Source of the DNA: Clostridia bacterium
Lineage (GTDB): Bacteria; Bacillota; Clostridia; Christensenellales; CAG-138
Reading direction: 5' to 3'
Assembly (NCBI GenBank): GCA_036651815.1
Contig: JAVVXB010000007.1
Coordinates: forward strand, 14,192-78,191
Length of the DNA: 64,000 nucleotides
Part shown: positions 6,883 to 21,471 of the stretch, piece after piece
How the letters are laid out: the number at the start of each line of letters is the position of its first letter
Position numbering within the stretch: position 1 is the first letter of the stretch
Made by a program: the position numbers and the translations under genes
Notes under the pieces: generated by a model
Database searches by the model: none
Told to the model about the DNA's origin: nothing
The model's input: only the letters and a program-made list of their open reading frames with translations

Positions 6883-7982
6883 AGAGAAAAAGGCTATTGA
6901 GATGGGCGTTTTGCTTGCTAATGGTGATGATAGCGATGCCGCGTTCGCTTGTGCGTGCGGAGGACGAATCAGAAGATTCTGACATTAACAGAAGCGGGGT
7001 TGAAATAGTGGTTACCGCTGCGGAGGCGGCGGAGGTATTGCGTGCGGCTAACCGTGCTGCGGACAATGCCGAGATGATGGAACTGCAAAGCTATGACCTG
7101 ACACAAAACGGCGTGGTGAACGATATCGATGTGCGCGTTGCGCTATGGGCGGCAGCGGGACGGATTCCGGATCTTGTGAAGTTTGTGGAGCGCGTTACTA
7201 CGGGCCTTCTGGATGAGACGGCGTTTGATCGCTTTCGTTATGCAGACGTGTATGACGACGGGCAGGGGAACTATCAAAGCTCATCCGTCAGCGTAACGGT
7301 GACGGAGCATATGTTAGAGCGGAATGTATATTTTGTGGCGGATATTTACATACAGGACATCCGTTGCCTTGCCACCGCCATGCCTGGAAAATCAAGTGGG
7401 CGCGATGGCTATGTGGAGACGATGGCACGGGAAAACAATGCGGTGTTGGCCATCAATGGCGATTATTATACCCAGCGTATGCAGGGACCGATCATTCGTA
7501 ATGGAGAAACCATTGTTCCCAATGTATCTGCCGCTTGGGATGTGGGCGTGCTAACCTGGACGGGAGAACTGAAAACGTTCCCTTATCGTACGCTGACCAA
7601 GGAGCTGCTCACTGAGCTGAATCCCTATCAAACTTGGGTATTCGGGCCCGTACTGCTGGATGAAACGGGACAACCGGCAACGAAATTTAATAGCGCGGTG
7701 ACGCCGTCCAATCCCCGCGCAGTCATTGGATATTATAGCCCGGGGCACTACTGCTTTATTCTAGTCGACGGCCGACAGAGCAAGTATTCTGTTGGCATGA
7801 CGATGAAGGAACTGGCGGCCTTGTGTGCGGAGATGGGACTGAAAACCGCCTACAACCTCGACGGCGGGCAATCCGCCGCCATGGCTACGCGAAATGGCCT
7901 GATCAGCCGTCCTTATGGCGGGGGACGCGCTGTGAGCGATATCATCTATATTCGAGAACTACCGGAGGATTTACCAGCGTGA
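6879..7982 (+). CDS. Secreted phosphodiester glycosidase family protein (DUF2233/NAGPA-like) with two dockerin-like Ca-loop repeats
   Basis: Signal peptide MKRKRLLRWAFCLLMVMIAMP; EF-hand/dockerin-like YDLTQNGVVNDIDVRVALWAAAG; catalytic-domain blocks AINGDYY, GPIIRNGE, AYNLDGGQSAAM. Confidence 0.75.
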   Translation: MKRKRLLRWAFCLLMVMIAMPRSLVRAEDESEDSDINRSGVEIVVTAAEAAEVLRAANRAADNAEMMELQSYDLTQNGVVNDIDVRVALWAAAGRIPDLVKFVERVTTGLLDETAFDRFRYADVYDDGQGNYQSSSVSVTVTEHMLERNVYFVADIYIQDIRCLATAMPGKSSGRDGYVETMARENNAVLAINGDYYTQRMQGPIIRNGETIVPNVSAAWDVGVLTWTGELKTFPYRTLTKELLTELNPYQTWVFGPVLLDETGQPATKFNSAVTPSNPRAVIGYYSPGHYCFILVDGRQSKYSVGMTMKELAALCAEMGLKTAYNLDGGQSAAMATRNGLISRPYGGGRAVSDIIYIRELPEDLPA

Positions 7983-9070
7983 AAACAGGAAGACAGAGAA
8001 GACTGCGCCGTGTACTGCTGCTGGGGCTACTGCTGGGCTTGCTGGCCGGCGGCACGATGGAGAAAACAACTTACGCAGCCCGATCGGTGGGCGATATGGA
8101 CGGAAACGGAACGGTGACTGCTGCTGATGCGGCGAGAATTCTGCGCGCGGCGCAGCGGTATACCGTATTGACATCCGAACAGCGCATCTGCGCGGATGTG
8201 ACGGCAAACAATGTGCTTGACGGCACGGACGCGCGCGCAGCGGCATGGCTTGCAACGGGTCAAATTGTCGATTATGGTGCGTTTCTTGCGTCCATCCGCT
8301 CCGGCCTCTGCGACGAACGGTATTTTGATCGATTTCGTTATACCGGAGTAACCGACAGTGGAGACGGCAACTATAGAAGTAAAAATGTCGGTGTATGGAT
8401 AACGCGGGGGGAAGCGTACAACAGCGTGTATTATCTAGCCGATATCTATATTCGCGATATTCAAGCACTTAAGACGGGTTTTGGCGGCAATAAGTATCAG
8501 GGCGGCAGCGAGAAGGTGGGCGTCATGGCGGCCAATCTCGAAGCGATTGTTGCGGTCAATGGGGATTACTATGCCTGGCGTGCGGCAGGCCCGCTGGTGC
8601 GCAACGGGGAAGTTTACCGCGAGTATGTCAGCTATAGCGGGGAGATTGCATTTCTTTCCAAGGACGGCACGTTCACCACGTTGCCGGCTGGTCTAGTCGG
8701 GCGGGACACCGTAACCCAGCTGGACGTATACCAGACCTGGATGTTTGGTCCACCCTTGCTTGATGAAAACGGGAACGCAAAGACAAAGTTTACCGGGCAA
8801 CTGCTTAAGTATAACCCGCGTAGCGTCTTTGGTTATTATGAGCCTGGACATTACGCGTTGATCCTCGTGGATGGACGGCAGAAGGACTATTCTCTGGGGA
8901 TGGAAATGCAGGAATTGTCCTCGCTGTGCCACGATCTGGGACTGGCAGCAGCCTACAATCTGGATGGTGGGCGGTCTGCAGTTATGGCGAGCAAATATGG
9001 ACCGATCAGTCATCCGCAGAGCAAGGACGGCAGACCGGTGAGCGATATTGTTTATGTTTGCGAACCGTGA
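7979..9070 (+). CDS. Second secreted phosphodiester glycosidase family paralog with dockerin-like repeats
   Basis: GTG 7979 overlaps the upstream TGA (GTGA). Signal/TM segment RRLRRVLLLGLLLGLLAGG; dockerin-like GDMDGNGTVTAADAARILRAA and DVTANNVLDGTDARAAAWLATG; blocks VNGDYY, GPLVRNGE, AYNLDGGRSAVM. Confidence 0.75.
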   Translation: MKTGRQRRLRRVLLLGLLLGLLAGGTMEKTTYAARSVGDMDGNGTVTAADAARILRAAQRYTVLTSEQRICADVTANNVLDGTDARAAAWLATGQIVDYGAFLASIRSGLCDERYFDRFRYTGVTDSGDGNYRSKNVGVWITRGEAYNSVYYLADIYIRDIQALKTGFGGNKYQGGSEKVGVMAANLEAIVAVNGDYYAWRAAGPLVRNGEVYREYVSYSGEIAFLSKDGTFTTLPAGLVGRDTVTQLDVYQTWMFGPPLLDENGNAKTKFTGQLLKYNPRSVFGYYEPGHYALILVDGRQKDYSLGMEMQELSSLCHDLGLAAAYNLDGGRSAVMASKYGPISHPQSKDGRPVSDIVYVCEP

Positions 9071-9199: not shown

Positions 9200-9290
9200 G
9201 ATGTAGGCACGGGAATCATCGCAGCATCGTGGCAGCATCGTCAAACTTTTGTGAACGGTTGCGCAATTTGACGCATGTGAAAAAGATCTG

Positions 9291-9299
9291 TGCTATACT
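9291..9299 (+). promoter_or_regulatory. Candidate extended -10 promoter element for the exporter operon
   Basis: TGcTATACT lies 48 nt upstream of ATG 9347. A TTGACG hexamer at 9268-9273 is 20 nt away, which is too far for a canonical spacer. Confidence 0.3.
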
Positions 9300-9346
9300 G
9301 TAAAATCAAAAGAATTGTGAAACGAATATGTTCGGAGGATGGTCCT

Positions 9347-10855
9347 ATGAAAAAGAAGAAGAAGCGCATCATCATTCTGGCAGTAGTTGCGGCGGTGATC
9401 GTAATCGTTATTGTCATGATCAGCCAAATGGCGCGTGCCAGCGCATCCAAGATGATGGAAGCGGTCTATCAAAACTATACGGTAGCAAAGGGCACGGTGG
9501 AGACAACCATTACAGCCGGCGGGCAGCTTTCTGCGGAAGAGACGGAAAACGTACTGGTGCCGGATGGCTTGACCGTCACAAAGCTCTGTGTCTCCGCGGG
9601 TGACGAGGTGAAGGCCGGGGCTGTGTTGTGCGAACTCGATCCGGATAGCGTGCGCAATCAGTTGATCTATGCAGGGAAGCAGGCGACTACCTCTGAAAAT
9701 CACCTTGGCAAGAGCGGCACAAATGATACCATCACTGCCCCTGCCCAGGGCCGTCTCAAATATCAGCCGGCCAAGGTCGGGGACGATGTGATTTCTGATA
9801 TGCTGCAATATGGTGCGCTGGCCATACTATCCACGGATGGATGGATGCGGCTGGAGGTGCAGACCAACATGGAGCTGACGCTTGGTGAAAAGGTGATTGC
9901 CGAGTGGGACGGCGGCAAGGCCAAAGCCGTTGTGGATAAAAAGGTGGACGGCGGATATTCCATTCTGGTTCCGGACGATCACGCACCCTATCTGGTGACC
10001 GCTAAGGTGTACAAGATGGATCAGGAGGTTGGCAGTGGCACACTCCGGATCAATTTGCCAGTAGAGGTCTACGGCTTTGCGGGAACCATCCGTAAAGTCA
10101 GCTATCAAGTGGACGAGTCCGTACCGGATGGCCGGGCGCTGTTTACACTAACCAATCCACCGGTTTCAACGGGCTATGCTGCCCGTTATAATGAACGCAG
10201 CGGCCTGGCAGATCGATACGCGGCCCTCATCAGGCTGCATGCCAACCCCAGTGTGGTCGCGCCCTGCGACGGGATTATCAGCGAGATCTTTGTCACACAG
10301 GACGGGCTGACCGGCAAAGTCGATAAAGCCGACAAGGACAGCATTGCATTTTCCATTGCCACGGGCAGCATCAATCAGTTGGTTGTGGACGTGGACGAGC
10401 TGGATATTATTTCCACCTTGGAAGGATTGACCGCAGAGGTTACATTTGAAGCTTTGCCGAACGAGCATTTTTCAGGAGCGGTGACGCGGGTAACCAAAAT
10501 TGGCAAGAAGCAAAACAGCATCTCCACCTATCCCGTGGAGATTACGATCGAGCCGGATAAACGACTGTTGATTGGCATGAACGGCACGGCGACCATTCTT
10601 GCGGATCGTGTGGAAAACACACTGATTATCCCCATAAATGCCATCAGCGAGGATGGCGAAGGAACCTTCGTCAATGTGCTGGCGGCGGACGGTGCGCGGG
10701 TACGTACCGCAATTACAACTGGCAAATCGGATGGTAGCATGGTGGAGGTGACCAGCGGCCTTTCTGAGGGGGATGTGATTTCCTATACATTGCCCGGTCT
10801 AACACTGGCTGATATGTACGGTGGCATGCAAGGCGCGGCCGTAGCCATGGAGTGA
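9347..10855 (+). CDS. HlyD/MacA-type membrane-fusion (periplasmic adaptor) protein
   Basis: GGAGG RBS at 9334-9338; N-terminal TM anchor; biotinyl/lipoyl-like hairpin VSAGDEVKAGAVLCELD; C-terminal beta-barrel block; first gene of a HlyD-ABC-FtsX triad. Confidence 0.8.
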   Translation: MKKKKKRIIILAVVAAVIVIVIVMISQMARASASKMMEAVYQNYTVAKGTVETTITAGGQLSAEETENVLVPDGLTVTKLCVSAGDEVKAGAVLCELDPDSVRNQLIYAGKQATTSENHLGKSGTNDTITAPAQGRLKYQPAKVGDDVISDMLQYGALAILSTDGWMRLEVQTNMELTLGEKVIAEWDGGKAKAVVDKKVDGGYSILVPDDHAPYLVTAKVYKMDQEVGSGTLRINLPVEVYGFAGTIRKVSYQVDESVPDGRALFTLTNPPVSTGYAARYNERSGLADRYAALIRLHANPSVVAPCDGIISEIFVTQDGLTGKVDKADKDSIAFSIATGSINQLVVDVDELDIISTLEGLTAEVTFEALPNEHFSGAVTRVTKIGKKQNSISTYPVEITIEPDKRLLIGMNGTATILADRVENTLIIPINAISEDGEGTFVNVLAADGARVRTAITTGKSDGSMVEVTSGLSEGDVISYTLPGLTLADMYGGMQGAAVAME

Positions 10856-11553
10856 GGAATCTGATAGTGAAGAACGAAACGCCCGTCATTCAGATGCGGG
10901 ATATTACAAAGGTATATGATGTGGGTGGCGAGCAGGTCTATGCCTTGAACCAGGCCTGTATGAAGGTGTATGAGGGTGAGTTTGTGTCCATTGTTGGGCC
11001 TTCCGGCAGCGGGAAGTCCACACTCATGAACATCATGGGCTGCCTGGATACGGCTGACAGCGGTGAATATTTGCTGGATGGACAACCCATTGAACAGTAC
11101 ACCGAGCGCCAGCTAACCAAAATCCGCAATCAAAAGATTGGATTTGTTTTCCAGGGCTTTAACCTGCTTGGCAAGATGACGGCGGAGGAAAACGTGGAAC
11201 TGCCGCTGATTTACCAGCGGCTGAATGCCGCGCTGCGCCGGGAACGTGTGCATGAGGCGCTGGAACGGGTTGGGTTGACCGACCGGCGACAACATAAGCC
11301 AACGGAGCTTTCTGGCGGTCAGCAGCAGCGCGTTGCGATAGCGCGGGCACTGGTTACGCATCCGGCTCTTCTTCTTGCCGATGAACCAACCGGCAATCTG
11401 GATTCCAAGACCGGAGACGATATTATGCGGCTGTTTCACGAACTGCATGAGGCTGGCAACACCATAGTCCTCATTACCCACAACGAGGGTATTGCAGAAC
11501 AGGCCGGCCGGTGCATCCATATTATGGATGGACAAGTTAGCGAGGTGGATTGA
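10852..11553 (+). CDS. MacB/LolD-type ABC transporter ATP-binding protein
   Basis: Walker A GPSGSGKST, signature LSGGQQQRVAIARAL, Walker B LLLADEPT. The start overlaps the upstream stop. Confidence 0.9.
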   Translation: MRNLIVKNETPVIQMRDITKVYDVGGEQVYALNQACMKVYEGEFVSIVGPSGSGKSTLMNIMGCLDTADSGEYLLDGQPIEQYTERQLTKIRNQKIGFVFQGFNLLGKMTAEENVELPLIYQRLNAALRRERVHEALERVGLTDRRQHKPTELSGGQQQRVAIARALVTHPALLLADEPTGNLDSKTGDDIMRLFHELHEAGNTIVLITHNEGIAEQAGRCIHIMDGQVSEVD

Positions 11554-12738
11554 ATGCTGGTGCAATCAATCAAGATGGCCTGGCAGGCCATCGTCAGCAA
11601 TAAAATGCGGTCGTTTCTGACCATGCTGGGCATCATCATCGGCGTTATGGCGATGGTGGTTATGGTGTCGCTTGTCAATGGTGCCACCGGTAAGGTTACG
11701 AGCGAAATTGAATCTCTTGGTACCGACCGTATCAGCGCCTATATATTTGACAACAAGGGCAAGCCGATCAAGTTGAGTGATCTGGAGGAAATTCAGCAGA
11801 ATGCAGCCATCGATCAGGTCGCGCCACAGGTCAACTACAGCACAGGGGCCAAGCATGGCTACAAAGACGCCACTGTCGTGATGTATGGGACAACGGCGGC
11901 TTATGAAGCCATCGGGGGGATCAGTTTGAAATATGGGCGTTTCATCCGAACCACCGATTTGGATAATAATGCTTATGTGGCAGTGCTTGCTTACAACACG
12001 GCAAAGAAACTGTTCGATCGTGTAGATGTCGTCGGCGAACCGCTTTCCATCGGTGGACGGACGTTCACGATCGTGGGGGTGCTGGAGGAGAATAAATCAA
12101 CGATGTCCTATTCGGCGTTCCAGTATGATGTATATGTACCGTATACGGTTTTGACCCGGATGACGGGTCAGACTGAAATCGGCACGATCTTTGCCACATC
12201 AGCCGATCCGGAAAGCAACGACGCGGCGGAGCAGATGCTGACAAGCTACCTCAGCGCACGGTTCAACGGGGATGCCGACGCATTCTATATTGACAACATG
12301 ACCACCATGATGAATACCATGAGTACGGTGACCAACACCATGCAACTGCTGCTGGGCGGTATCGCGGCCATATCGCTGCTGGTGGGCGGCATTGGCATTA
12401 TGAATATCATGCTGGTATCCGTCACGGAGCGCACACGTGAAATCGGCATTCGCAAGGCAATCGGCGCAGGGCGCGGTAGCATCATGATGCAGTTTCTGAT
12501 CGAAGCGCTCATGGTGAGTTTATTCGGTTGCATCATCGGATTGCTGTTTGCTGCAGGCGTATTAAGGATTGCGACGGCAGTTGCAGCGGCGACGGCGGGC
12601 ATCAACTTTACCATGTCGCCGGGGGTTGTGATACTGGCCGCAGGATTTTCATCCGCAATCGGTCTGATTTTCGGCCTGTATCCAGCCAATAAAGCCGCCA
12701 AGATGCCGCCAATTGAGGCACTCAGATATCAAGGATAA
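11554..12738 (+). CDS. MacB/FtsX-family ABC transporter permease
   Basis: MacB periplasmic-domain layout followed by the FtsX core VGGIGIMNIMLVSVTERTREIGIRKAIGA. It abuts the ATPase gene. Confidence 0.9.
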   Translation: MLVQSIKMAWQAIVSNKMRSFLTMLGIIIGVMAMVVMVSLVNGATGKVTSEIESLGTDRISAYIFDNKGKPIKLSDLEEIQQNAAIDQVAPQVNYSTGAKHGYKDATVVMYGTTAAYEAIGGISLKYGRFIRTTDLDNNAYVAVLAYNTAKKLFDRVDVVGEPLSIGGRTFTIVGVLEENKSTMSYSAFQYDVYVPYTVLTRMTGQTEIGTIFATSADPESNDAAEQMLTSYLSARFNGDADAFYIDNMTTMMNTMSTVTNTMQLLLGGIAAISLLVGGIGIMNIMLVSVTERTREIGIRKAIGAGRGSIMMQFLIEALMVSLFGCIIGLLFAAGVLRIATAVAAATAGINFTMSPGVVILAAGFSSAIGLIFGLYPANKAAKMPPIEALRYQG

Positions 12739-13291: not shown

Positions 13292-13483
13292 ATGGGTAAA
13301 TTCTGTGAAGTCTGCAATAAGGGTGTCATGTCCGGCAATCTGGTCAGCCACTCCAACCGCAAGACCAAGCGCGGCTGGGCGCCGAACATTAAAAGCGTGC
13401 ATGTTGTTGTCGGCGGTACGCCGACCAAGATGAACGTTTGTACCCGTTGCCTCCGTTCCGGCAAGGTTACGCGCAGCGTCTAA
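13292..13483 (+). CDS. rpmB: 50S ribosomal protein L28
   Basis: MGKFCEVCNKGVMSGNLVSHSNRKTKR...VCTRCLRSGKV is an unmistakable L28 sequence; AAGGAGG RBS at 13273-13279. Confidence 0.97.
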   Translation: MGKFCEVCNKGVMSGNLVSHSNRKTKRGWAPNIKSVHVVVGGTPTKMNVCTRCLRSGKVTRSV

Positions 13484-13497
13484 GTGCTTTCCACACG

Positions 13498-13534
13498 CGC
13501 CATGCTCTTTATCAGAGCATGGCGTTTTCTTTTC
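13498..13534 (+). terminator. Intrinsic terminator of rpmB
   Basis: Perfect 11-bp stem CGCCATGCTCT / AGAGCATGGCG, 5-nt loop, then TTTTCTTTT. Confidence 0.85.
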
Positions 13535-13540
13535 CAGTAT

Positions 13541-13570
13541 ATTTCCATTGGAAATGGCATCTGATATAAT
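13541..13570 (+). promoter_or_regulatory. Promoter plus palindromic operator candidate directly abutting the giant ORF
   Basis: 7-1-7 palindrome ATTTCCA-T-TGGAAAT (13541-13555) overlaps a -35-like TTTCCA. After a 17-nt spacer comes an extended -10, TGaTATAAT (13562-13570). The predicted +1 is near 13577, the A of the second ATG. Confidence 0.45.
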
Positions 13571-13573
13571 CAA

Positions 13574-16500
13574 ATGATGTTGACAAACGATTCTGAATGG
13601 ACGCAAGTCTTTCTCGAAAGACTGCATGCGGAGCTGACTGTCCGCTGTGGTTCCGATTGGCGTGTGCGCCTTGCACAACCTAGTGATGCGATGATGCTCA
13701 ATCTACTTGGGGAAACGGTTTTTGACCGCTTTCATCTCGGTCAACAGGCACTGCCTCTTTGCCGCTGCGCGCTGGATAAACTGTCTGAAGAGCCAGAGGA
13801 GGGGTGGATTGCCGCAGCCTATGCCTACCTGATCGATGCATTCTATCCGCCGGAAGTGCCGTCGCCGGAATCACCGGAACGCACGGCCGCGCTGGAGCTG
13901 TATCTGGCAGTTTTGCACACCTGTATCCTGCGGGAACGTGAGACGCGTTCCTACGATCCGCTGACCGATGTGCTGTTTGTGACGGAGCAGGAGCGTGCCG
14001 TGAGCGCAGTGTCGGATGAATACGATGCATTTCTTACTGCGGTGACACAGGCGCGATACTTGGAACTCATGCATTTGGCGCGGGCCGTAACGCCATTAGA
14101 TCCGCTTTCCCACACGGCGGGCGTACATCATGTGGCGGTACACATGGCGCGTCAGGCGGTAGACTGTGGCATTCCTGTGGATATCGCGCTGGTTTCTGCG
14201 GCGGCGGTTGCACACGATATCGGCAAGTTTGGTTGCCGGAGCAACGACAGCAAGCGCGTGCCTTATCTGCATTACTATCATACCGATCGATGGTTGATCC
14301 AAAACGGTCTACCGCATATTGCCCATGTTGCGTCCAACCATTCCACTTGGGATCTCGAATATGAGAATCTGCCGGTGGAATCACTGCTGCTCATCTATGC
14401 GGATTTCCGCGTGCGCGGTACGAAGGACGGCGGCAGAGAACGCATCGAAATTCACACGTTGGCGGAGGCAGGGGAAATCATCTTCGGCAAGTTGACCAAC
14501 ATGGTGGCTGAGAAACGGCGGCGTTATCAGCGCGTCTATCATAAGCTATGTGACTTTGAAGGTGCGCTCACACACCTTGGCGTGAACCCTGATCCGTTTT
14601 CGGATACGTTTTTGCTGGTGGAACCTGTGAACGCTGCCCTGCTGCCGGATGCGCAGGATGTAGATCTGCTCAAACGCATGGCCATAGAGCGCAACCTGCG
14701 ACTGATGCATGCCTTCAGTGCCAACGAATCGTTTGAGCGATTGTTGGAGCAGGCGCGCAGCGAAAAGACACTGGAGAGCATCCGAACCTACCTCAATTTG
14801 TTTGAGGAATACTGCACCTATATGACGCGCGCGCATAAGCTGGAAACGCTCAATTTGCTCTACGAACTGCTGATGCATCAGGAGAGCGATGTGCGCAGGT
14901 TGGCGGGCCGGCTCATGGGACGAATTTTATCCAACGACGGATTGCAATATCGTAAGGAATTGCCAGACAACGCGCCGGAGACAGCCATTGCGCCAACGCT
15001 GTCCGAAATGCTTCAGGAGCGTGAGGCACTCTGGCAAAAGTATCTAGAGTTGCTGCTGTCCCCCGATCCAAAGATTGGCAAAAAGCATGCAATACGCATT
15101 GTCAACTCGCTCAAGGTGGTTGTGGAAAGTCTCTTTGATCACTGCAAACACATGGATGCGCGGGGATATCTGAACCAATTGCTGGCGCGTTATCGGAACG
15201 TGTTGCCAACGGAACGATTTGTGTTGATGGATACCATTGTGCGCATACCGGTTCAACTGCTGACGGAGGATGAGATGGGCATGCTCATCGAATCGACGAT
15301 GCCGATGCTGACGCAGACCGATAGCAGCGAACAGGTGTGTGCACTGCGTGCGTTGTTGCATTTTGTTACGCAGCGCCGCGAAGAAACGGGCACACAGATT
15401 GGCGTGATGCTGGAAAAGACGCCGATTGTGGGCGGAACGGCGGTCAACTATCTGCTGGGCTGTATTTGCGCACGGCTGCGCAGTCAGAATGCAGCGGTTC
15501 CGGCTACGGGCCGACTGTCTGGCGGCGAGGTTTCGGAGCTGTGCCTCATGAACCTAAAAAACGCGGTGCATTGGATTGTCAAAGAGACAAATATTGATGT
15601 GCTGTGCGCTTATGCTACCAACAGCCCGGCGGATACATTTCAAGTTGCAACCCATCTAAGCAATCTTTTGATGGTATCTGAACATCTTCCAGTGCGAGAA
15701 CATGCAGGCAGGGCGCTGGTCGCACTGTCGGGCAGACTCGGCGTGGATCAGGTTAACGAACTCGTCATCGATCTTTGCCGTGGACTGGATACGGAGCAGA
15801 GGGAATTTCTGCGCTATGTACCGGCGACGCTGTCGACGATGATTCAATGCCTACCCGCCCAGGAGCAGGACGAAACCATTTCTATCCTGGAACATATGGT
15901 ACGTTCCGGCGCGGCCCGTGCCGCAGGCGCTGCGCTCTCCACGCTGGGGACAATGCTTGTGGGGCTTGCGCTTTCCACCGAACCGGGAGATAAGCTGTCC
16001 AACGGCCGCCAGAAACGCATCCTGGGCATCCTACTGGCCGGCTTGGCACACTTTGACGACACGGTGCACCGGGCGGCGCTGACCGTTCTCTGCCGGGACG
16101 TGTGTGGCGCACAGCAGTTGCCGCTAGGCAGACGGCGGACGCTGTTTGTTCAATTCATGAAAAAAATGATTACCATTTTGCCAGAGCGGGCAGAAAATGA
16201 GATTACCTTTTTCAATACGGGCGCTATGCTTAACCATCTGTACCGAATGATGATTGACTGCGAAGTGAACTTTGGCCCATTTATATTTCCGGCACCCGGC
16301 GCGGTTGCGTTTTTTCCAGGTACATTCGATCCGTTTTCCAGTGGACACAAGCGGATTGTGAGGGAGATTCGTTCACTGGGAATCGAGGTCTACCTCGCTG
16401 TGGATGAATTTTCATGGTCGAAGAGCATGCAGCCCAAACTGCTCCGGCGGCAGATTACGCTGATGAGCGTGGCCGACTGCTTCGGGGTATATCTATTTCC

Positions 16501-18376
16501 GGATGATCAGCCGGTCAACCTTGCCAATCCGGCAGATTTGGCGCGGTTAAAGCGGTTTTTCCCCGGACGTCAATTGTTTTTGGTAGCCGGTAGCGATGTC
16601 ATCGAACAGGCGACGGCTTACGCGGACGCATCCATTGCAGGCAGTGCGGGTACTTATGACCATATTTTGTTTTCCCGCCGGAAATTGGTGGAGAAACAGG
16701 GCGATGCAACCCATAGCACCGCTCGGGAACGTCTGCGCGGACAGATCATTGAGTTGTCGCTGCCAACGTATTATGAAGAGGTAAGTTCATCGCGCATTCG
16801 GGCGTTTGTCGATAAAAATCTCGAAATCTCGATGTTGGTCGATCCGGTGGTGGAGTCGTTTATTCATGAAAAAGGCTTGTATTTGCGCGCACCACAATAT
16901 AAGCAGACGCTGCCGCCCGAGAAATGGGCGCTGACAACGCTTCTTTGCACCGATGAATCCACGCCGCATGCGCTGCGCACGCTGCCGGAGGATTTTGCTT
17001 CAAAACTGCTGGATACACTGCGGCAGGGGAGCGGACGGGCCGTGCTGCTGACCGACGGCAGGAGTGCGATTGTGTCCGCAGCAATCTTTGCCCACACGGT
17101 CAATGCGGGACAATTGCTCTACGAACTGCGAAACGTTAAGCTTGCGGAATATGTGCGCATGCATAGCTCCGGCAAGGTTCTGCGTATCGATGGTGCGTGC
17201 GTGCCGCCGGATTGCCCGGAGGTCGCGGAAGAACTTGCCAACGAGCTGGTTACGGGCTGTCTCGCTGATGATCATACCTATGCGTTGTATGTTAGCACCG
17301 GGCCGGACGATCCGCTGGAAATCGTGCTGCGCAAGAAGGGATTTCGGATTGTGGATCGGGACGAGCAGACGTTGCTTGTGGATATGCGCGCGCCTCTTGT
17401 TATAATGCTGGATGCGTTTAGCATGCTCAAGGAACCCTTTGCTTCCGATCCCGTAGTGATGGCTTGCGTGCTGTCGTCGCGCGAGAAGCTGCTGGATGGG
17501 CTGTGCGCCCTGTTTCCGGGCGAACTGGTACTTTCGTTTGATACGCGGCAAATCAACCATGCGCTCATTCATAAGGCACAGCAGTATAATGGCGTTCTGG
17601 GATTGCCGGAAAAGCCGCGGCGTCTGGGTCCGTTCATGTGTGTGCCATACGGCAAGATCCTTTCCGACGTGGTTGTGCCCAACACTGTAACCAAGGCGCT
17701 GCACGTGGAAAAAGTGTTTGAAAACGACATCCGTCACTTTACCATCCGGGAGGAAGCCGGTTATTCCCCGCTTGTGCACCAGATCCGAACGATCCGCTCG
17801 TTCAATCGCCCCGTGCTGCTGGTGGATGATCTACTGCACAATGGCTACCGTATGGAGAAGCTGAGTCCGCTGTTCACCAGCGAACAGGTGGAGATTCGGC
17901 GGATACTGGTGGGGATTCTTTCCGGCCGCGGCAAGGATCTTATGCAACAGCAGGGACGCAGCGTAGATGCCGTCTATATGATTCCAAACCTGCGCTACTG
18001 GTTTACGGAGAGTCTGCTGTATCCGTTTATCGGCGGGGACAGCGTCATGCGGCGCGGCGGAAACGCAGAGAGCAGCCTACCCTCCGTCAATTTGATTCTA
18101 CCGTATCGCTCACCAGAGTTTCTGCATGAAGTTTCGGATGAGAAGAAGGCGCACCTGTCCATGCTGGCGCTGACCAACGCCTGCAAGATATTGCATACAT
18201 TGGAGCAGCGGTATCAGGTATTGTTTCGGCGGAGCCTGACACTGGCACGGCTGGGGGAGGCGCTGCAAAAGCCGCGCATGCCCGACAAGGGGCTGTGTGT
18301 GCACTATGACCGCAGCATGCCCGCATCTGTTGTTTTGCGCGATGATATCGACTGGATGATGAGAATGGGGATTTGA
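13574..18376 (+). CDS. 1,600-aa multidomain protein: HD phosphohydrolase + HEAT-like repeats + NadD/NMNAT-type nucleotidyltransferase + GNAT-like region + PRT-like C-terminal module
   Basis: HD signature AVAHDIGKFG (HD codons 14213-14218); HEAT-like ESDVRRLAGRLMGRIL, LPVREHAGRALVALSG, DDTVHRAALTVL; nucleotidyltransferase motifs GTFDPFSSGH (16325-16348) and VSSSRIR (16781-16801); PRT-like RPVLLVDDLLHNGYRM (17813-17851). The frame is uninterrupted for 4.8 kb. Confidence 0.8.
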   Translation: MMLTNDSEWTQVFLERLHAELTVRCGSDWRVRLAQPSDAMMLNLLGETVFDRFHLGQQALPLCRCALDKLSEEPEEGWIAAAYAYLIDAFYPPEVPSPESPERTAALELYLAVLHTCILRERETRSYDPLTDVLFVTEQERAVSAVSDEYDAFLTAVTQARYLELMHLARAVTPLDPLSHTAGVHHVAVHMARQAVDCGIPVDIALVSAAAVAHDIGKFGCRSNDSKRVPYLHYYHTDRWLIQNGLPHIAHVASNHSTWDLEYENLPVESLLLIYADFRVRGTKDGGRERIEIHTLAEAGEIIFGKLTNMVAEKRRRYQRVYHKLCDFEGALTHLGVNPDPFSDTFLLVEPVNAALLPDAQDVDLLKRMAIERNLRLMHAFSANESFERLLEQARSEKTLESIRTYLNLFEEYCTYMTRAHKLETLNLLYELLMHQESDVRRLAGRLMGRILSNDGLQYRKELPDNAPETAIAPTLSEMLQEREALWQKYLELLLSPDPKIGKKHAIRIVNSLKVVVESLFDHCKHMDARGYLNQLLARYRNVLPTERFVLMDTIVRIPVQLLTEDEMGMLIESTMPMLTQTDSSEQVCALRALLHFVTQRREETGTQIGVMLEKTPIVGGTAVNYLLGCICARLRSQNAAVPATGRLSGGEVSELCLMNLKNAVHWIVKETNIDVLCAYATNSPADTFQVATHLSNLLMVSEHLPVREHAGRALVALSGRLGVDQVNELVIDLCRGLDTEQREFLRYVPATLSTMIQCLPAQEQDETISILEHMVRSGAARAAGAALSTLGTMLVGLALSTEPGDKLSNGRQKRILGILLAGLAHFDDTVHRAALTVLCRDVCGAQQLPLGRRRTLFVQFMKKMITILPERAENEITFFNTGAMLNHLYRMMIDCEVNFGPFIFPAPGAVAFFPGTFDPFSSGHKRIVREIRSLGIEVYLAVDEFSWSKSMQPKLLRRQITLMSVADCFGVYLFPDDQPVNLANPADLARLKRFFPGRQLFLVAGSDVIEQATAYADASIAGSAGTYDHILFSRRKLVEKQGDATHSTARERLRGQIIELSLPTYYEEVSSSRIRAFVDKNLEISMLVDPVVESFIHEKGLYLRAPQYKQTLPPEKWALTTLLCTDESTPHALRTLPEDFASKLLDTLRQGSGRAVLLTDGRSAIVSAAIFAHTVNAGQLLYELRNVKLAEYVRMHSSGKVLRIDGACVPPDCPEVAEELANELVTGCLADDHTYALYVSTGPDDPLEIVLRKKGFRIVDRDEQTLLVDMRAPLVIMLDAFSMLKEPFASDPVVMACVLSSREKLLDGLCALFPGELVLSFDTRQINHALIHKAQQYNGVLGLPEKPRRLGPFMCVPYGKILSDVVVPNTVTKALHVEKVFENDIRHFTIREEAGYSPLVHQIRTIRSFNRPVLLVDDLLHNGYRMEKLSPLFTSEQVEIRRILVGILSGRGKDLMQQQGRSVDAVYMIPNLRYWFTESLLYPFIGGDSVMRRGGNAESSLPSVNLILPYRSPEFLHEVSDEKKAHLSMLALTNACKILHTLEQRYQVLFRRSLTLARLGEALQKPRMPDKGLCVHYDRSMPASVVLRDDIDWMMRMGI

Positions 18377-18377
18377 T

Positions 18378-19304
18378 ATGGAGTCACTGCATAGAATTGA
18401 ACCAGTTTTGCCAAACGGAAAAATCGGACGTACGCTGCATCTGGTGGGACTCGGAGATGTGGGTGGCACGTTGCTGACCGGACTCATGCTGACGTGTCCA
18501 ATGCTTGAAACCATTGGAATCTACGATTTTGACGCACGCCGCTGCGCACGCTACGAGCAGGAGATGAACCAGATTTTGCCTATGGACGGCAGGAAACCTC
18601 ATGTGACTGTGCTGCAATTGGAAGAACTGTTTGATGGCTGTGATCTGTTTGTGTTTGCGGCATCGGCAGGGACGCCGCCGGTGGGGACGGGGGTGGCGGA
18701 TGTGCGGATGATCCAGTATGAAAAGAATCTGGGCATCCTGCGACCTTATGTAGAGATGGCAGTTCGGAAGGGCTACGCGGGGTTGTTTTTGCAGATGTCC
18801 GATCCGGTGGATCAGCTCTGCATGCAAGTAATGAACGTGGGGCTGAAGCCGGAGCAAATTGTCGGTTGTGGATTGGGGGTGATGCTTGCCCGCGCAGATT
18901 ACTGCGCACGAAAGCGTGGCAATACAAACTTTCTGGTGAATGGGCGCGTATTTGGTCCCCATGGAAACGGTCTTATTGTGGCAAATGACCCCAAGGATGG
19001 ATATGACGACGAATATTCCCGCGCACTTACACAGGCAGTGCTACAGGCAAACCTGGCCGTGCGGGAAACTGGCTATAAGCCGTACATCGCGCCTGGACTG
19101 TCCTCCGGCTGCCTCAGCATTCGCAGCCTGCTGTCCGGCACCTGGTTCCATGGCTCGTTCTTCGATTCGGGCGGGATTTTCTGGGGATGTCGGGCAAGGC
19201 TCACAGAATGCGGCGTGGAACGAGAGACAATACGGCTGCATCCACTGCTGCATGCACGCATCGAAGAAACCAGAAAGGGGCTGTTACAATGCCGGAACGA
19301 TTGA
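18378..19304 (+). CDS. LDH/MDH-family (2-hydroxyacid) dehydrogenase-like Rossmann protein
   Basis: GLGDVGG dinucleotide loop; D at the end of beta-2 (IYDFD); FAASAGTPP...VRM; SDPVD; GPHGNG in the position of the catalytic-His loop. ATG lies 1 nt after the upstream TGA, with the RBS inside the upstream gene. Confidence 0.7.
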   Translation: MESLHRIEPVLPNGKIGRTLHLVGLGDVGGTLLTGLMLTCPMLETIGIYDFDARRCARYEQEMNQILPMDGRKPHVTVLQLEELFDGCDLFVFAASAGTPPVGTGVADVRMIQYEKNLGILRPYVEMAVRKGYAGLFLQMSDPVDQLCMQVMNVGLKPEQIVGCGLGVMLARADYCARKRGNTNFLVNGRVFGPHGNGLIVANDPKDGYDDEYSRALTQAVLQANLAVRETGYKPYIAPGLSSGCLSIRSLLSGTWFHGSFFDSGGIFWGCRARLTECGVERETIRLHPLLHARIEETRKGLLQCRND

Positions 19305-20383
19305 CGATTCTTACCCTTGGGAAGCACACACGGCTCGGGGATATCCTTGCCTATGCGCTGGATGGTGTGGATTTTAATGCGGTAACTGCGGAGGAGATGA
19401 AATCGACAGACCTCAGGGGCAGGCGCATTCTATTTGCGCTCTCGCTGGACGAGAGCGGCTTGGCGGACGATTTCATGTGCTGCATCCGCTATCTGCGCAC
19501 CCATTTTCAGGCGCTGGATGGCGCTACGGGAGCGATACTGGTGGACAGTGCCACGGAGCTGTATACAAAAGAAATTGCCCGGACGTTGGTATTTGACGCA
19601 AACTGCTCCGGCTGCCGCTTCCCGGGGCGGGGCATGGTTGAGGCGACCAAATCGTTAAAAAATTTTGATGTTCTCTGTGGTGTTTATGGCGTGGATCGTT
19701 ACACAGCCTATCAACGTGCTGTGCGTTTACTCATCGAGCGGTTGTGTTCCGATGTGCCGGCTCAGTTTGAACGGCCCAAAGTATTATGGTTACACGCGTC
19801 CGACAAAGCACGTTCCAACGCCTTTGCACTGGGCAGTCAAGTGACGGAACGGTTAGCTGACTGCTGCGAAATTAATGAGATTTCCATGCAGGCAAGTCCG
19901 ATCAATGACTGCAATGGATGCTCGTATAAAACCTGCCAGCATTATGCCGAACAGGAGACGTGCTTTTATGGCGGGATATTGCCGGAAGCGGTTTTTCCGG
20001 CCATTATGGCATGTGACGCGCTGTTGCTTTGTTGCTCCAATTACAACGATGCGCCCGGCGCACATTTTTTGGCGCTCAACAATCGCCTCAATGCCCTGCT
20101 GCTGCGTGGGAAACCGTTCAATAAGGCGCTGTTTGCCATCGTGGTATCCGGCTATAGCGGCGGCGATTTGGTGGCGAAGCAGCTGATGGGCGGCTTCTGC
20201 TTGAATAAACCTTGCTGCCTGCCACCGCGCTTTGCGCTGCTGGAAACAGCCAATGATCCGGGGACCGTTTTACAGGAGATGGGTGTATTTGACAGGATTG
20301 CGGCCTATGCCGACCAAATTCAGCAAGAACTGTGCATCCGAGAAACAGCGCGGGTGCCATGCGCAGAAGCAACGCCAGAATGA
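19289..20383 (+). CDS. Two-module flavodoxin-fold protein; C-terminal half resembles NADPH-dependent FMN reductase / iron-sulfur flavoprotein
   Basis: The second half has KVLWLHASDKARSN..., a Cys cluster CNGCSYKTCQHYAEQETC, and ACDALLLCCSNYNDAPGAHFLALNNRL, typical of the FMN_red/Isf family. ATG 19289 overlaps the upstream gene by 16 nt. Confidence 0.65.
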   Translation: MPERLTILTLGKHTRLGDILAYALDGVDFNAVTAEEMKSTDLRGRRILFALSLDESGLADDFMCCIRYLRTHFQALDGATGAILVDSATELYTKEIARTLVFDANCSGCRFPGRGMVEATKSLKNFDVLCGVYGVDRYTAYQRAVRLLIERLCSDVPAQFERPKVLWLHASDKARSNAFALGSQVTERLADCCEINEISMQASPINDCNGCSYKTCQHYAEQETCFYGGILPEAVFPAIMACDALLLCCSNYNDAPGAHFLALNNRLNALLLRGKPFNKALFAIVVSGYSGGDLVAKQLMGGFCLNKPCCLPPRFALLETANDPGTVLQEMGVFDRIAAYADQIQQELCIRETARVPCAEATPE

Positions 20384-20819: not shown

Positions 20820-21401
20820 TTAAGCAAGGCCCAGCTTTCCATTTAGTTTTTGATAGATAACCTGCATGCAGGGTTCCGTACTGCGAGAAACTGCCTCCGA
20901 TGGCGTCATCCATAACACGCCGCTGTTTTCGTCAGGCTTCACTTTGGTTGCTTCTGCATCGTCCGCCTGTAACAAATAGGTGAGATTCAGGTGCAGATGG
21001 GCAGAGACAAACGCGCCCCGCTTGATGTGGCTGTCCACCGGCAAAATTTCCAGAGACAGCGGTTCAGATCGCAGCGGCGTTATCCGGGTAACGCCGGTTT
21101 CCTCCTGCGCTTCCCGCATGGCAACCGCCAAAAGATCAGCTTCTCCATCGGCGTGGCCACCCACCCACGACCATGACTGATAAATGTTATGGTAGATCAT
21201 CAGCACCCGCGTGTGCGTTGCGTTGATGATCCAGGCGGAGCCCGTAAAATGGCAGAGGGCATTCTCCCGGGTTAGTAGATTGTCGAATTGACGAAGGTAG
21301 GTTAGCAGCAACCGACGATCGAATTCTTCCTGCGGGCAGGATGGGATAAACGCATTAATTTGTGCTTGCAGCGGAGCGGCCGTGGGTACGAAGGGGATCA
21401 T
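20820..21401 (-). CDS. NUDIX hydrolase
   Basis: Nudix box GGHADGEADLLAVAMREAQEETGV. ATG 21401 (MIPFVPT) is preceded by GGAGG. Confidence 0.85.
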   Translation of the reverse strand: MIPFVPTAAPLQAQINAFIPSCPQEEFDRRLLLTYLRQFDNLLTRENALCHFTGSAWIINATHTRVLMIYHNIYQSWSWVGGHADGEADLLAVAMREAQEETGVTRITPLRSEPLSLEILPVDSHIKRGAFVSAHLHLNLTYLLQADDAEATKVKPDENSGVLWMTPSEAVSRSTEPCMQVIYQKLNGKLGLA

Positions 21402-21471
21402 GCTGAAACCTCCGTATTTTGAATAAATTGATTGTAGCACAAAGAAGAGATATTGTGTTAAAATAACGCGT

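Follow-up and report, generated by a model that had tools for sequence, protein, structure and literature searches.

What kind of chemistry is carried out by a 1,600-residue protein that combines several nucleotide-related folds on a single polypeptide is the question raised by a locus on contig JAVVXB010000007.1 (assembly GCA_036651815.1) of a Clostridia bacterium, lineage CAG-138. The 64,000-nucleotide (nt) stretch of this contig analyzed here is referred to as the window, and positions are given relative to it. As stated in an initial interpretation of the DNA that did without database searches (the sequence-only reading), the gene in question, termed the big gene in the following, is a single open reading frame (ORF) at 13574..18376 on the + strand, running uninterrupted for 1,600 amino acids plus the stop codon. 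The deduced protein is cytoplasmic-looking and consists of N-terminal helices, an HD domain, a HEAT/ARM solenoid, a NadD/NMNAT-like nucleotidyltransferase, a degenerate GNAT domain, an HGPRT/APRT-like phosphoribosyltransferase (PRT) domain and a helical tail. Profile searches and fold comparisons supported, unevenly, all five modules that had been read from the translation. The big gene heads a strongly conserved three-gene operon, and its product and the two partner proteins probably form a nucleotide-handling enzyme complex.

An artefact, i.e., a mis-assembly or a read-through joining several genes, was considered as an explanation for the unusual length and is given practically no probability, as homologs of this length that align collinearly occur again in hundreds of independent assemblies and in isolate genomes. 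The best 120 database homologs comprise approximately 1,500–1,620 amino acids, share 45–61% identity with the protein and are collinear over 93–100% of the query, and four further near-identical copies of 1,599–1,600 amino acids from other assemblies fall within its 90% cluster. Assembly as the origin of the fusion was refuted by these homologs of equal length, by the same-length copies in other assemblies and by the species-wide scan described below. Conservation of the fusion and of the two downstream genes, for which the sequence-only reading had suggested a survey of homologs, was found on both counts: homologs extend from end to end, and homologs of gene 2 and gene 3 follow the big gene on the same strand in 61 of the 64 related loci featuring at least 2.3 kb of downstream sequence. 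The remaining three loci comprise two without both partners and one with gene 2 only.

These two downstream genes are the most informative feature of the locus. Gene 2 (18378..19304, + strand) encodes a divergent NAD-type dehydrogenase of the lactate/malate dehydrogenase (LDH/MDH) superfamily (308 amino acids), as deduced from LDH matches in NCBIfam and PDB. It starts 1 nt past the stop codon of the big gene and is preceded by the putative, Shine-Dalgarno-like ribosome-binding site GGGGA. The motif GLGDVG and the residues D50, R110, R172 and H195 are invariant, the last three corresponding to R109, R171 and H195 of LDH; the position of LDH D168 is occupied by an invariant Met, and the NCBIfam LDH score amounts to 38 bits at a cut-off of 339. 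Most homologs of gene 2 (approximately 405–415 amino acids; e.g., locus L001, 12697-13917) possess an N-terminal extension of approximately 90–100 amino acids that is missing in the window and has no Pfam match; the gene 2 homologs of Anaerovoracaceae are also short.

Gene 3 (19289..20383, + strand) encodes a two-domain flavodoxin-like protein of 364 amino acids, identified by PF03358 and by its place in the conserved operon. When read from the ATG at 19289, which is preceded by the likewise putative ribosome-binding site AAAGGGG, the protein is 57% identical to the partner encoded in L001. Its C-terminal part matches FMN_red (PF03358) with 33.4 bits, above the gathering score of 24, and the N-terminal half also reads as flavodoxin-like. 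Four cysteines, namely C208, C211, C216 and C225 (CxxCx4Cx8C), are invariant in 28 sequences, and their arrangement appears to resemble the Fe-S site of iron-sulfur flavoproteins. In the window, genes 2 and 3 share 16 nt, and overlaps of 8–29 nt between the big gene and gene 2 occur in L085 and L086. Together with the 1-nt gap, these overlaps suggest translational coupling within the operon.

Within the big protein, the nucleotidyltransferase is supported by both fold and profile evidence. This NadD/NMNAT-like domain of the HIGH type (approximately residues 905–1112; 16286..16909, + strand) was identified by PF01467, Foldseek and a domain profile. PF01467 scored above threshold (22.8 bits, gathering score 21). 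The top 28 Foldseek matches are all bacterial NadD structures, the best being NadD of B. subtilis (1kaq, E 2e-6, target-normalised template modelling (TM) score 0.77). Furthermore, the domain profile matched the nicotinic acid mononucleotide (NaMN) adenylyltransferase of P. falciparum over its full length (E 5e-8), and NMNAT1 and phosphopantetheine adenylyltransferase (PPAT) in part. Motifs recognized are PGTFDPFSSGH (915–925), DEFSWSK (944–950) and VSSSRIR (1070–1076), the latter located at nt 16781-16801 as placed previously. The string GTFDPFSSGH is likewise present and spans nt 16319-16348; the earlier coordinates, 16325-16348, cover FDPFSSGH only, which is a trivial offset.

The sequence-only reading had described a complete NadD core with both hallmark motifs. 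The fold and VSSSRIR bear this out, and the C-terminal motif is kept in the family as VSS(S/T)RIR; the N-terminal hallmark does not, since the family motif FDPF-S-x-G-H carries Ser/Thr at the first His of NadD, giving SxGH instead of HxGH as in the TxGH type of PPAT. DEFSWSK is conserved in the family and does not occur in those sequences of NadD, NMNAT and PPAT that were aligned with the domain profile. Moreover, NadD equivalog models score only 16–31 bits versus cut-offs of 112–315, for example 31.2 versus 112.45 bits for TIGR00482 and 27.9 versus 150 for PRK00071. Hence, the big protein is not a NadD ortholog. The parallel previously drawn to the neighbouring NadD and YqeK genes holds at the level of folds and fails at the level of families: the NadD model reaches 31 of the required 112 bits, and no YqeK model is found at E<=1.

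The type-I-PRT-like (HGPRT/APRT-like) domain follows at approximately residues 1336–1515 (17579..18118, + strand), indicated by weak profile and fold matches. PRT-like motifs comprise CVPYG (1356–1360), TVTK, VLLVDDLLHNGYR (1414–1426; present at nt 17813-17851 as noted before), SGRG and IPN...W...PFIGGD (1470–1489); the IPN...W...GGD part may be comparable to the base-binding hood of HPRT. Among 41 diverse C-terminal domains, 29 matched NCBIfam APRT (best E 3e-5) and 21 archaeal HPT, no other family recurring, and Pfam Pribosyltran (PF00156) matched 23 of them at E<=1. Foldseek comparison with a viral structure library returned a phage Hpt (E 5.6e-4, TM 0.43) and UMP synthase (E 1.7e-3), and the C-terminal domain profile alone retrieved no PRT from PDB at E<=10. 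The hydrophobic strand and the acidic pair D1418-D1419 of the motif binding 5-phosphoribosyl 1-pyrophosphate (PRPP) are kept; TGGT is replaced by H-[K/N]-G-Y-R (H-N-G-Y-R in the window protein), in which His and Arg are invariant throughout the 41-sequence alignment. Similarity to the type I PRT core fold is therefore weak but consistent. Of the PRT-like module proposed at the outset, the profile and fold likeness and the acidic pair remain; the PRPP loop lacks the TG-T half that binds phosphate.

Structures of the big protein were predicted with AlphaFold2 (AF2) for two halves modelled separately from 46-sequence alignments, both being confident with predicted local distance difference test (pLDDT) scores of 88.1 for residues 1–900 and 87.8 for residues 895–1600. 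The NadD, GNAT and HEAT folds are better supported than those of the PRT and HD domains. The HD phosphohydrolase-like domain (approximately residues 130–335, Pfam match 179–277; 13961..14578, + strand) was recognized by Pfam, NCBIfam and its ligand motif. The Pfam HD model (PF01966) matched the window protein below threshold (E 0.006, 17.3 bits, gathering score 22) and 20 of 28 homologs at E<=0.01 (best 4.4e-6). The metal-ligand motif is intact, with H180, H214-D215, H233, H256 and D277 invariant, and these residues are kept in approximately 76–78 of 83 HD-containing representatives. Of the HD-related NCBIfam models, that of the DVU_1551-type NTP transferases scored best with its HD portion (E 1.7e-6, residues 163–284), and HDIG was also matched; at E<=1, YqeK is not among the NCBIfam matches of the window protein. 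Profile matches of the HD domain in PDB are weak (E 0.17–0.3), with HDIGK aligned to the HD-GYP protein 4mcw at E 0.17, and the HD fold is absent from the Foldseek list for residues 1–900, in which HEAT matches occupy the top 50. The peptides GVHHVAVHM, AVAHDIGKFG (H214-D215 encoded by nt 14213-14218) and YADFRVRG, on which the HD assignment was originally founded, are all present, as are the three HEAT-like strings cited with them. A homolog from a metagenome-assembled genome (MAG; L043, 6205-6861) contains an in-frame stop codon within the HD region, which could reflect a pseudogene or a sequencing error.

The subsequent HEAT/ARM-like alpha-solenoid of approximately 540 amino acids (approximately residues 359–900; 14648..16273, + strand) is all-helical in the AF2 model, and a solenoid of stacked helical hairpins is accordingly predicted. 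Its Foldseek matches (E 2e-6 to 1e-4) comprise SF3B1, CAND1, karyopherins, PP2A PR65 and designed ARM proteins, and Pfam HEAT matched 7 of 28 homologs. Between nucleotidyltransferase and PRT-like domain, a GNAT-fold domain (approximately residues 1113–1280) plus a conserved linker subdomain extending to residue 1335 (16910..17578, + strand) was recognized by fold only, with Foldseek matches to GCN5 (E 6e-5), agmatine N-acetyltransferase and viral GNATs (Catovirus, TM 0.73). It is the least conserved module, featuring indels in its N-terminal part, large indels and a variable beta4-alpha3 loop (residues 1210–1216); its invariant columns account for 5%, compared to 22–26% in the HD, NadD-like and PRT-like modules. 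No Q/RxxGxG/A loop was seen in the beta4-alpha3 region when the alignment was inspected, and no Pfam acetyltransferase family matched the window protein or 28 homologs at E<=1. The segment formerly described as GNAT-like is thus confirmed as to its fold and degenerate otherwise, and the missing acyl-CoA loop together with the large indels makes acyltransferase activity doubtful. The C-terminal helical tail (residues 1516–1600; 18119..18373, + strand) is defined by AF2 helices and conserved columns and has no family match.

Regarding expression of the big gene, a putative promoter-like site with TG (TTTCCA-17-TATAAT; 13542..13570, + strand) was the best of the region, matching the consensus at 10 of 12 positions and supported by this match only. 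It ends 3 nt before the ATG at 13574, and no Shine-Dalgarno-like sequence was seen upstream of this ATG, so that the mRNA may be leaderless; alternatively, translation may begin at a more downstream codon. Conservation is poor over the first approximately 60 residues of the protein. The promoter-like site is placed after a strong terminator-like hairpin with a T-run (13497-13535), which itself follows a small ORF (13293-13487; MGKFCEVCNKGVMSGNLVSHSNRKTKRGW...) flanked by the genes for the SpoU methylase and the big protein and apparently encoding ribosomal protein L28 (rpmB). Further upstream, a gene at 7823-9070 encodes a phosphodiester glycosidase (NAGPA) with a type I dockerin, hinting at a cellulosome-type scaffold, and is followed by an HlyD / ABC / MacB-FtsX efflux operon (9290-12738).

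All-against-all clustering of all ORFs of 83 loci revealed no conserved neighbours beyond the trio, and the SpoU, NUDIX and EamA genes of the window are not linked to it. The NUDIX hydrolase gene (20820-21440, - strand) is convergent with the operon; as none of the related loci has it conserved beside the operon, it is probably unrelated. In two loci (L029 and L079) the big gene is not followed by genes 2 and 3, and the partners may reside elsewhere in those genomes; the downstream regions encode an AMP-binding enzyme in one case and GGDEF, signal peptidase and YceG proteins in the other.

Genes for nitrogen assimilation recur beside the operon in 19 loci of several lineages, in at least six arrangements. 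They encode asparagine synthetase (AsnB; 10 loci in four arrangements: L006, L007, L014, L019, L036, L050, L053, L062, L064 and L069), glutamate dehydrogenase (GDH; 9 loci: L054, L055, L058–L061, L063, L065 and L074) and type III glutamine synthetase (GS III; 5–6 loci by clustering or tblastn: L006, L007, L050, L062, L064 and L069). No such gene is located near the operon in the window. A link of the operon to nitrogen or 2-oxoacid metabolism is possible.

The family is widespread in anaerobic Bacillota and confined to part of Clostridia. In a scan of one genome per GTDB species, at least 581 genomes were found to encode a relative, and an exhaustive HMMER search with the C-terminal half yielded 546 clusters at 50% identity (E<=1e-3), 205 of them at E<=1e-30. 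Isolates carrying the gene include Anaerovorax odorimutans DSM 5092, Sedimentibacter saalensis DSM 13558, Faecousia intestinalis and Hominibacterium faecale. Further carriers among the genomes listed are MAGs of Oscillospiraceae, Christensenellaceae, Anaerovoracaceae, Blautia, Anaerotignum, Tyzzerella and Peptococcaceae.

Site conservation was evaluated for 105 representatives of at least 1,000 amino acids, reaching down to approximately 27% identity. Residues of the nucleotidyltransferase motifs are kept in 84–99% of them (F918 in 104, D919 in 100, [S/T]922 in 102, H925 in 88, W948 in 102, [K/R]950 in 99 and [R/K]1076 in 97), and those of the PRT-like site in comparable numbers of sequences (D1418 in 100, D1419 in 94, R1426 in 94 and G1488 in 101). 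The HD domain is wholly absent from 21 representatives, and two HD-less variants nevertheless have Ldh_1_N and FMN_red genes downstream. Since approximately one fifth of the family dispenses with it, the HD domain is an accessory, and the core as deduced from the 105 representatives consists of the solenoid, the nucleotidyltransferase, the GNAT-like fold, the PRT-like fold and the LDH-like partner.

More distant relatives show varied partners (L086/L087, 11117-13607; L091, 3426-9198; L085, 11884-15801). A clade of 1,714 amino acids keeps the LDH-like partner and has a U32-family gene instead of the flavoprotein gene. Furthermore, a variant of 1,065 amino acids has a degenerate nucleotidyltransferase motif and no partners, and its gene lies directly after, and overlaps, a PPDK_N gene. 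BcrAD_BadFG and DUF2229 genes lie downstream of the trio in L085, and in L090, which encodes a distant HD-less relative, the trio is embedded in an rpmB / recG / rsmD / coaD region.

Based on these findings, we infer, at somewhat less than an even chance, that the big protein performs phosphoribosyl transfer followed by adenylyl transfer and thereby makes or turns over an NAD-like dinucleotide in a complex with its two redox partners. Phosphoribosyl and adenylyl transfer had already been put forward as the core logic in the sequence-only reading, and this proposal fits the data, the site residues of the nucleotidyltransferase and the PRT-like domain being the most conserved across the 105 representatives; that the product is an NAD-like cofactor is an interpretation of this logic. 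In the proposed mechanism, the PRT-like domain would bind PRPP or a 5-phosphoribosyl compound by means of D1418-D1419 and the H-x-G-x-R loop and would join some base or acid to ribose 5-phosphate. The NadD-like motifs (S/T)x(G/S)H and SSxxR would then serve ATP, with the family-specific DEFSWSK as a candidate acceptor site, and AMP would be moved onto the phosphate of the ribotide to give a dinucleotide of the type A-pp-X. The HD domain, where present, would hydrolyse the pyrophosphate-linked product or mis-made analogues, for which YqeK beside NadD provides a precedent. As structural or ligand-binding elements, the HEAT solenoid and the degenerate GNAT domain would hold the two redox partners, which may make or modify the base moiety or may take up the dinucleotide as their cofactor.

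Several results weigh against this dinucleotide reading. The PRPP loop is devoid of its TG-T half, a PROSITE-type PRT pattern (PS00103) applied to all ORFs of the window and the loci did not match the big protein, and hhalign aligned VLLVDDLLHNGYR with VLVVDDLLATGGT of E. coli Apt at a probability of 15% only; PRPP chemistry is therefore a tentative assignment. The N-terminal motif of the nucleotidyltransferase resembles PPAT as much as NadD, and given NadD equivalog scores far below the cut-offs, the acceptor need not be a pyridine mononucleotide. In addition, some members of the family have lost motif residues, namely GH of the nucleotidyltransferase in P0203 and P0240 and DD of the PRT-like domain in P0248, P0250 and P0255, and at least there the domains may only bind ligands. 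The only recurring neighbours, the nitrogen-assimilation genes, are not explained by the dinucleotide model, and a search of the 64-kb window and eight related loci with Rfam at gathering thresholds detected no riboswitch or other RNA.

Loss of motifs with the architecture kept is also what would be expected of a sensor or regulator, in which the NadD-, PRT- and GNAT-like folds mainly bind nucleotides, PRPP or acyl-CoA-type ligands on a HEAT scaffold and control the LDH-like and flavoprotein partners or nitrogen-assimilation enzymes, possibly by GlnD-like (de)nucleotidylylation. We regard this as unlikely, although it is the main alternative. The size of the HEAT scaffold, the degenerate GNAT domain and the recurrence of AsnB, GDH and GS III beside the operon in 19 loci of several lineages speak for it. 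PRT folds serve as effector-binding domains in PurR and PyrR, and PyrR models are among the weak matches of the PRT-like domain. However, residues of catalytic type are kept in the nucleotidyltransferase and the PRT-like domain of 84–99% of the 105 representatives, which fits enzymes better than pure sensors. The big protein also lacks a DNA-binding or signalling output domain, the window has no nitrogen-assimilation gene nearby, and to our knowledge HIGH-type nucleotidyltransferases do not modify proteins except for CitC, which acts on a protein-bound prosthetic group. The likeness of FDPF(S/T)xGH to the TxGH type of PPAT, with PPATs as best sequence matches in this region, opens a further alternative, namely that a phosphorylated or carboxylated metabolite is activated in the manner of PPAT, TagD or CitC. 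The substrate could then be 4'-phosphopantetheine or a 2-hydroxyacid phosphate from the LDH-like partner and the product CoA-like or nucleotide-linked rather than a dinucleotide; the PRT-like domain would merely hold a ribose-5-phosphate moiety, and the HD domain would act as phosphodiesterase. A 2-hydroxyacid-dehydrogenase-like partner in 61 of 64 loci, plus the one with gene 2 only, would suit such a substrate, and a GNAT fold beside a HIGH-type nucleotidyltransferase is also known from CitC. Since NadD/NMNAT is the best fit both for the fold of the entire domain and for its C-terminal SSxxR region, the window protein is unmatched by Citrate_ly_lig, and the PRT-like domain retains the IPN...W...GGD site as a possible counterpart of the base-binding hood, this activation of a non-base substrate is considered improbable.

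Conversely, the same fold match could be taken literally: NadD is the best structural match, and some annotation pipelines name the protein nicotinic acid mononucleotide adenylyltransferase, so that a housekeeping NadD (with YqeK) bearing extra domains and serving ordinary NAD biosynthesis had to be weighed. This is very unlikely and was rejected on account of the equivalog scores of 16–31 bits versus 112–315, the Ser/Thr in place of the first His of HxGH, the presence of DEFSWSK, which the aligned NadD, NMNAT and PPAT sequences lack, and the missing YqeK model among NCBIfam matches at E<=1. Moreover, NadD is near-universal, whereas this family is restricted to part of Clostridia. A role in anti-phage defence was likewise ruled out, as PADLOC defence models gave no meaningful match for the three proteins (BrxC at E 0.089 represents noise). 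At the opposite end, the phosphoribosyl and adenylyl transfer reading can be extended to a trio that makes and uses a dedicated, so far undescribed adenine-containing dinucleotide cofactor, which appears a rather remote prospect. Here, a base and PRPP would yield a ribotide, ribotide and ATP the dinucleotide; its cognate redox enzymes would be the LDH-like protein and the Fe-S flavoprotein, and the HD domain would serve as a proofreading pyrophosphatase. If true, many Clostridia of gut and sediment would possess this cofactor system, which might be linked to nitrogen or 2-oxoacid metabolism.

Three nucleotide-chemistry folds on a eukaryote-style HEAT scaffold, combined with redox partners, point to undescribed nucleotide or cofactor metabolism or to its regulation. 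Carriers include major gut anaerobes, and the question is directly testable because cultured carriers exist. Public annotations designate the protein as 'cytidyltransferase-related domain protein', as 'hypothetical protein' or, wrongly, as 'NaMN adenylyltransferase'; correction of the NadD annotation matters for metabolic reconstructions of carriers. The statement that no characterised protein possesses this architecture was upheld. No family curated in NCBIfam or Pfam covers the whole protein, searches of PDB with the full-length sequence and profile gave domain-level matches to NadD, PPAT and HEAT proteins only, and no paper on this architecture, on the 'cytidyltransferase-related domain' protein or on DVU_1551 was found in the literature.

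Of the characterised systems, the NadD-YqeK pair or fusion known from Firmicutes and mycoplasmas (PRK07152) comes closest, the likeness residing in folds and logic and not in family membership. Both combine a HIGH-type NadD fold with an HD phosphohydrolase, and in the NadD-fused YqeK of JCVI-Syn3A (JCVISYN3A_0380) the HD domain hydrolyses analogues of nicotinic acid adenine dinucleotide (NaAD) and diadenosine tetraphosphate (Ap4A) (PMC9426524). In the big protein, however, the domain order is reversed and the HEAT solenoid of approximately 540 amino acids is inserted between the two domains; there are three additional modules and two obligate partner genes, the HD domain is absent from approximately 20% of the family, NadD models score far below their cut-offs, and the YqeK model is unmatched. 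The DVU_1551 NTP transferase (NF045665) contributes the best-scoring HD-related model by its HD part, but its model of 359 positions, in which the nucleotidyltransferase precedes the HD domain, reaches 27 bits here versus a cut-off of 315, so that the big protein is not a member. With the type I PRTs Hpt and Apt, the PRT-like domain shares the fold, weak profile matches and the hydrophobic strand and acidic pair aligned with the PRPP motif. It differs from them by H-[K/N]-G-Y-R in place of TGGT, by the unmatched PROSITE-type pattern, by scores far under the cut-offs and by the invariant CVPYG and TVTK, for which we identified no PRT counterpart.

A precedent for the central part is CitC (citrate lyase ligase), in which a GNAT fold is fused to a HIGH-type 'cytidyltransferase-related' domain; in the big protein the order of these domains is opposite, Citrate_ly_lig is not matched, and the operon contains no citrate lyase genes. 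GlnD likewise unites a nucleotidyltransferase, an HD hydrolase and ligand-sensing logic, and nitrogen-assimilation neighbours recur here; its transferase is of the pol-beta-type fold and accompanied by ACT domains, in contrast to the HIGH-type fold of the big protein, and the two have no sequence relation. Among the partners, gene 2 shares with LDH/MDH the Rossmann motif and the equivalents of R109, R171 and H195, and departs from them in the Met replacing D168, in the usual N-terminal extension of approximately 90 amino acids and in its score of 38 versus 339 bits. Gene 3 resembles Isf and FMN reductase in PF03358 above threshold and the compact four-Cys motif, and differs in its extra N-terminal flavodoxin-like half and its Cys spacing. 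There is a modest chance that the trio represents something categorically new, i.e., a dedicated cofactor machine. What is new in comparison with all these systems is a nucleotide enzyme of the nucleotidyltransferase/HD kind that has grown considerably through HEAT, GNAT-like and PRT-like modules and is linked to two redox partners.

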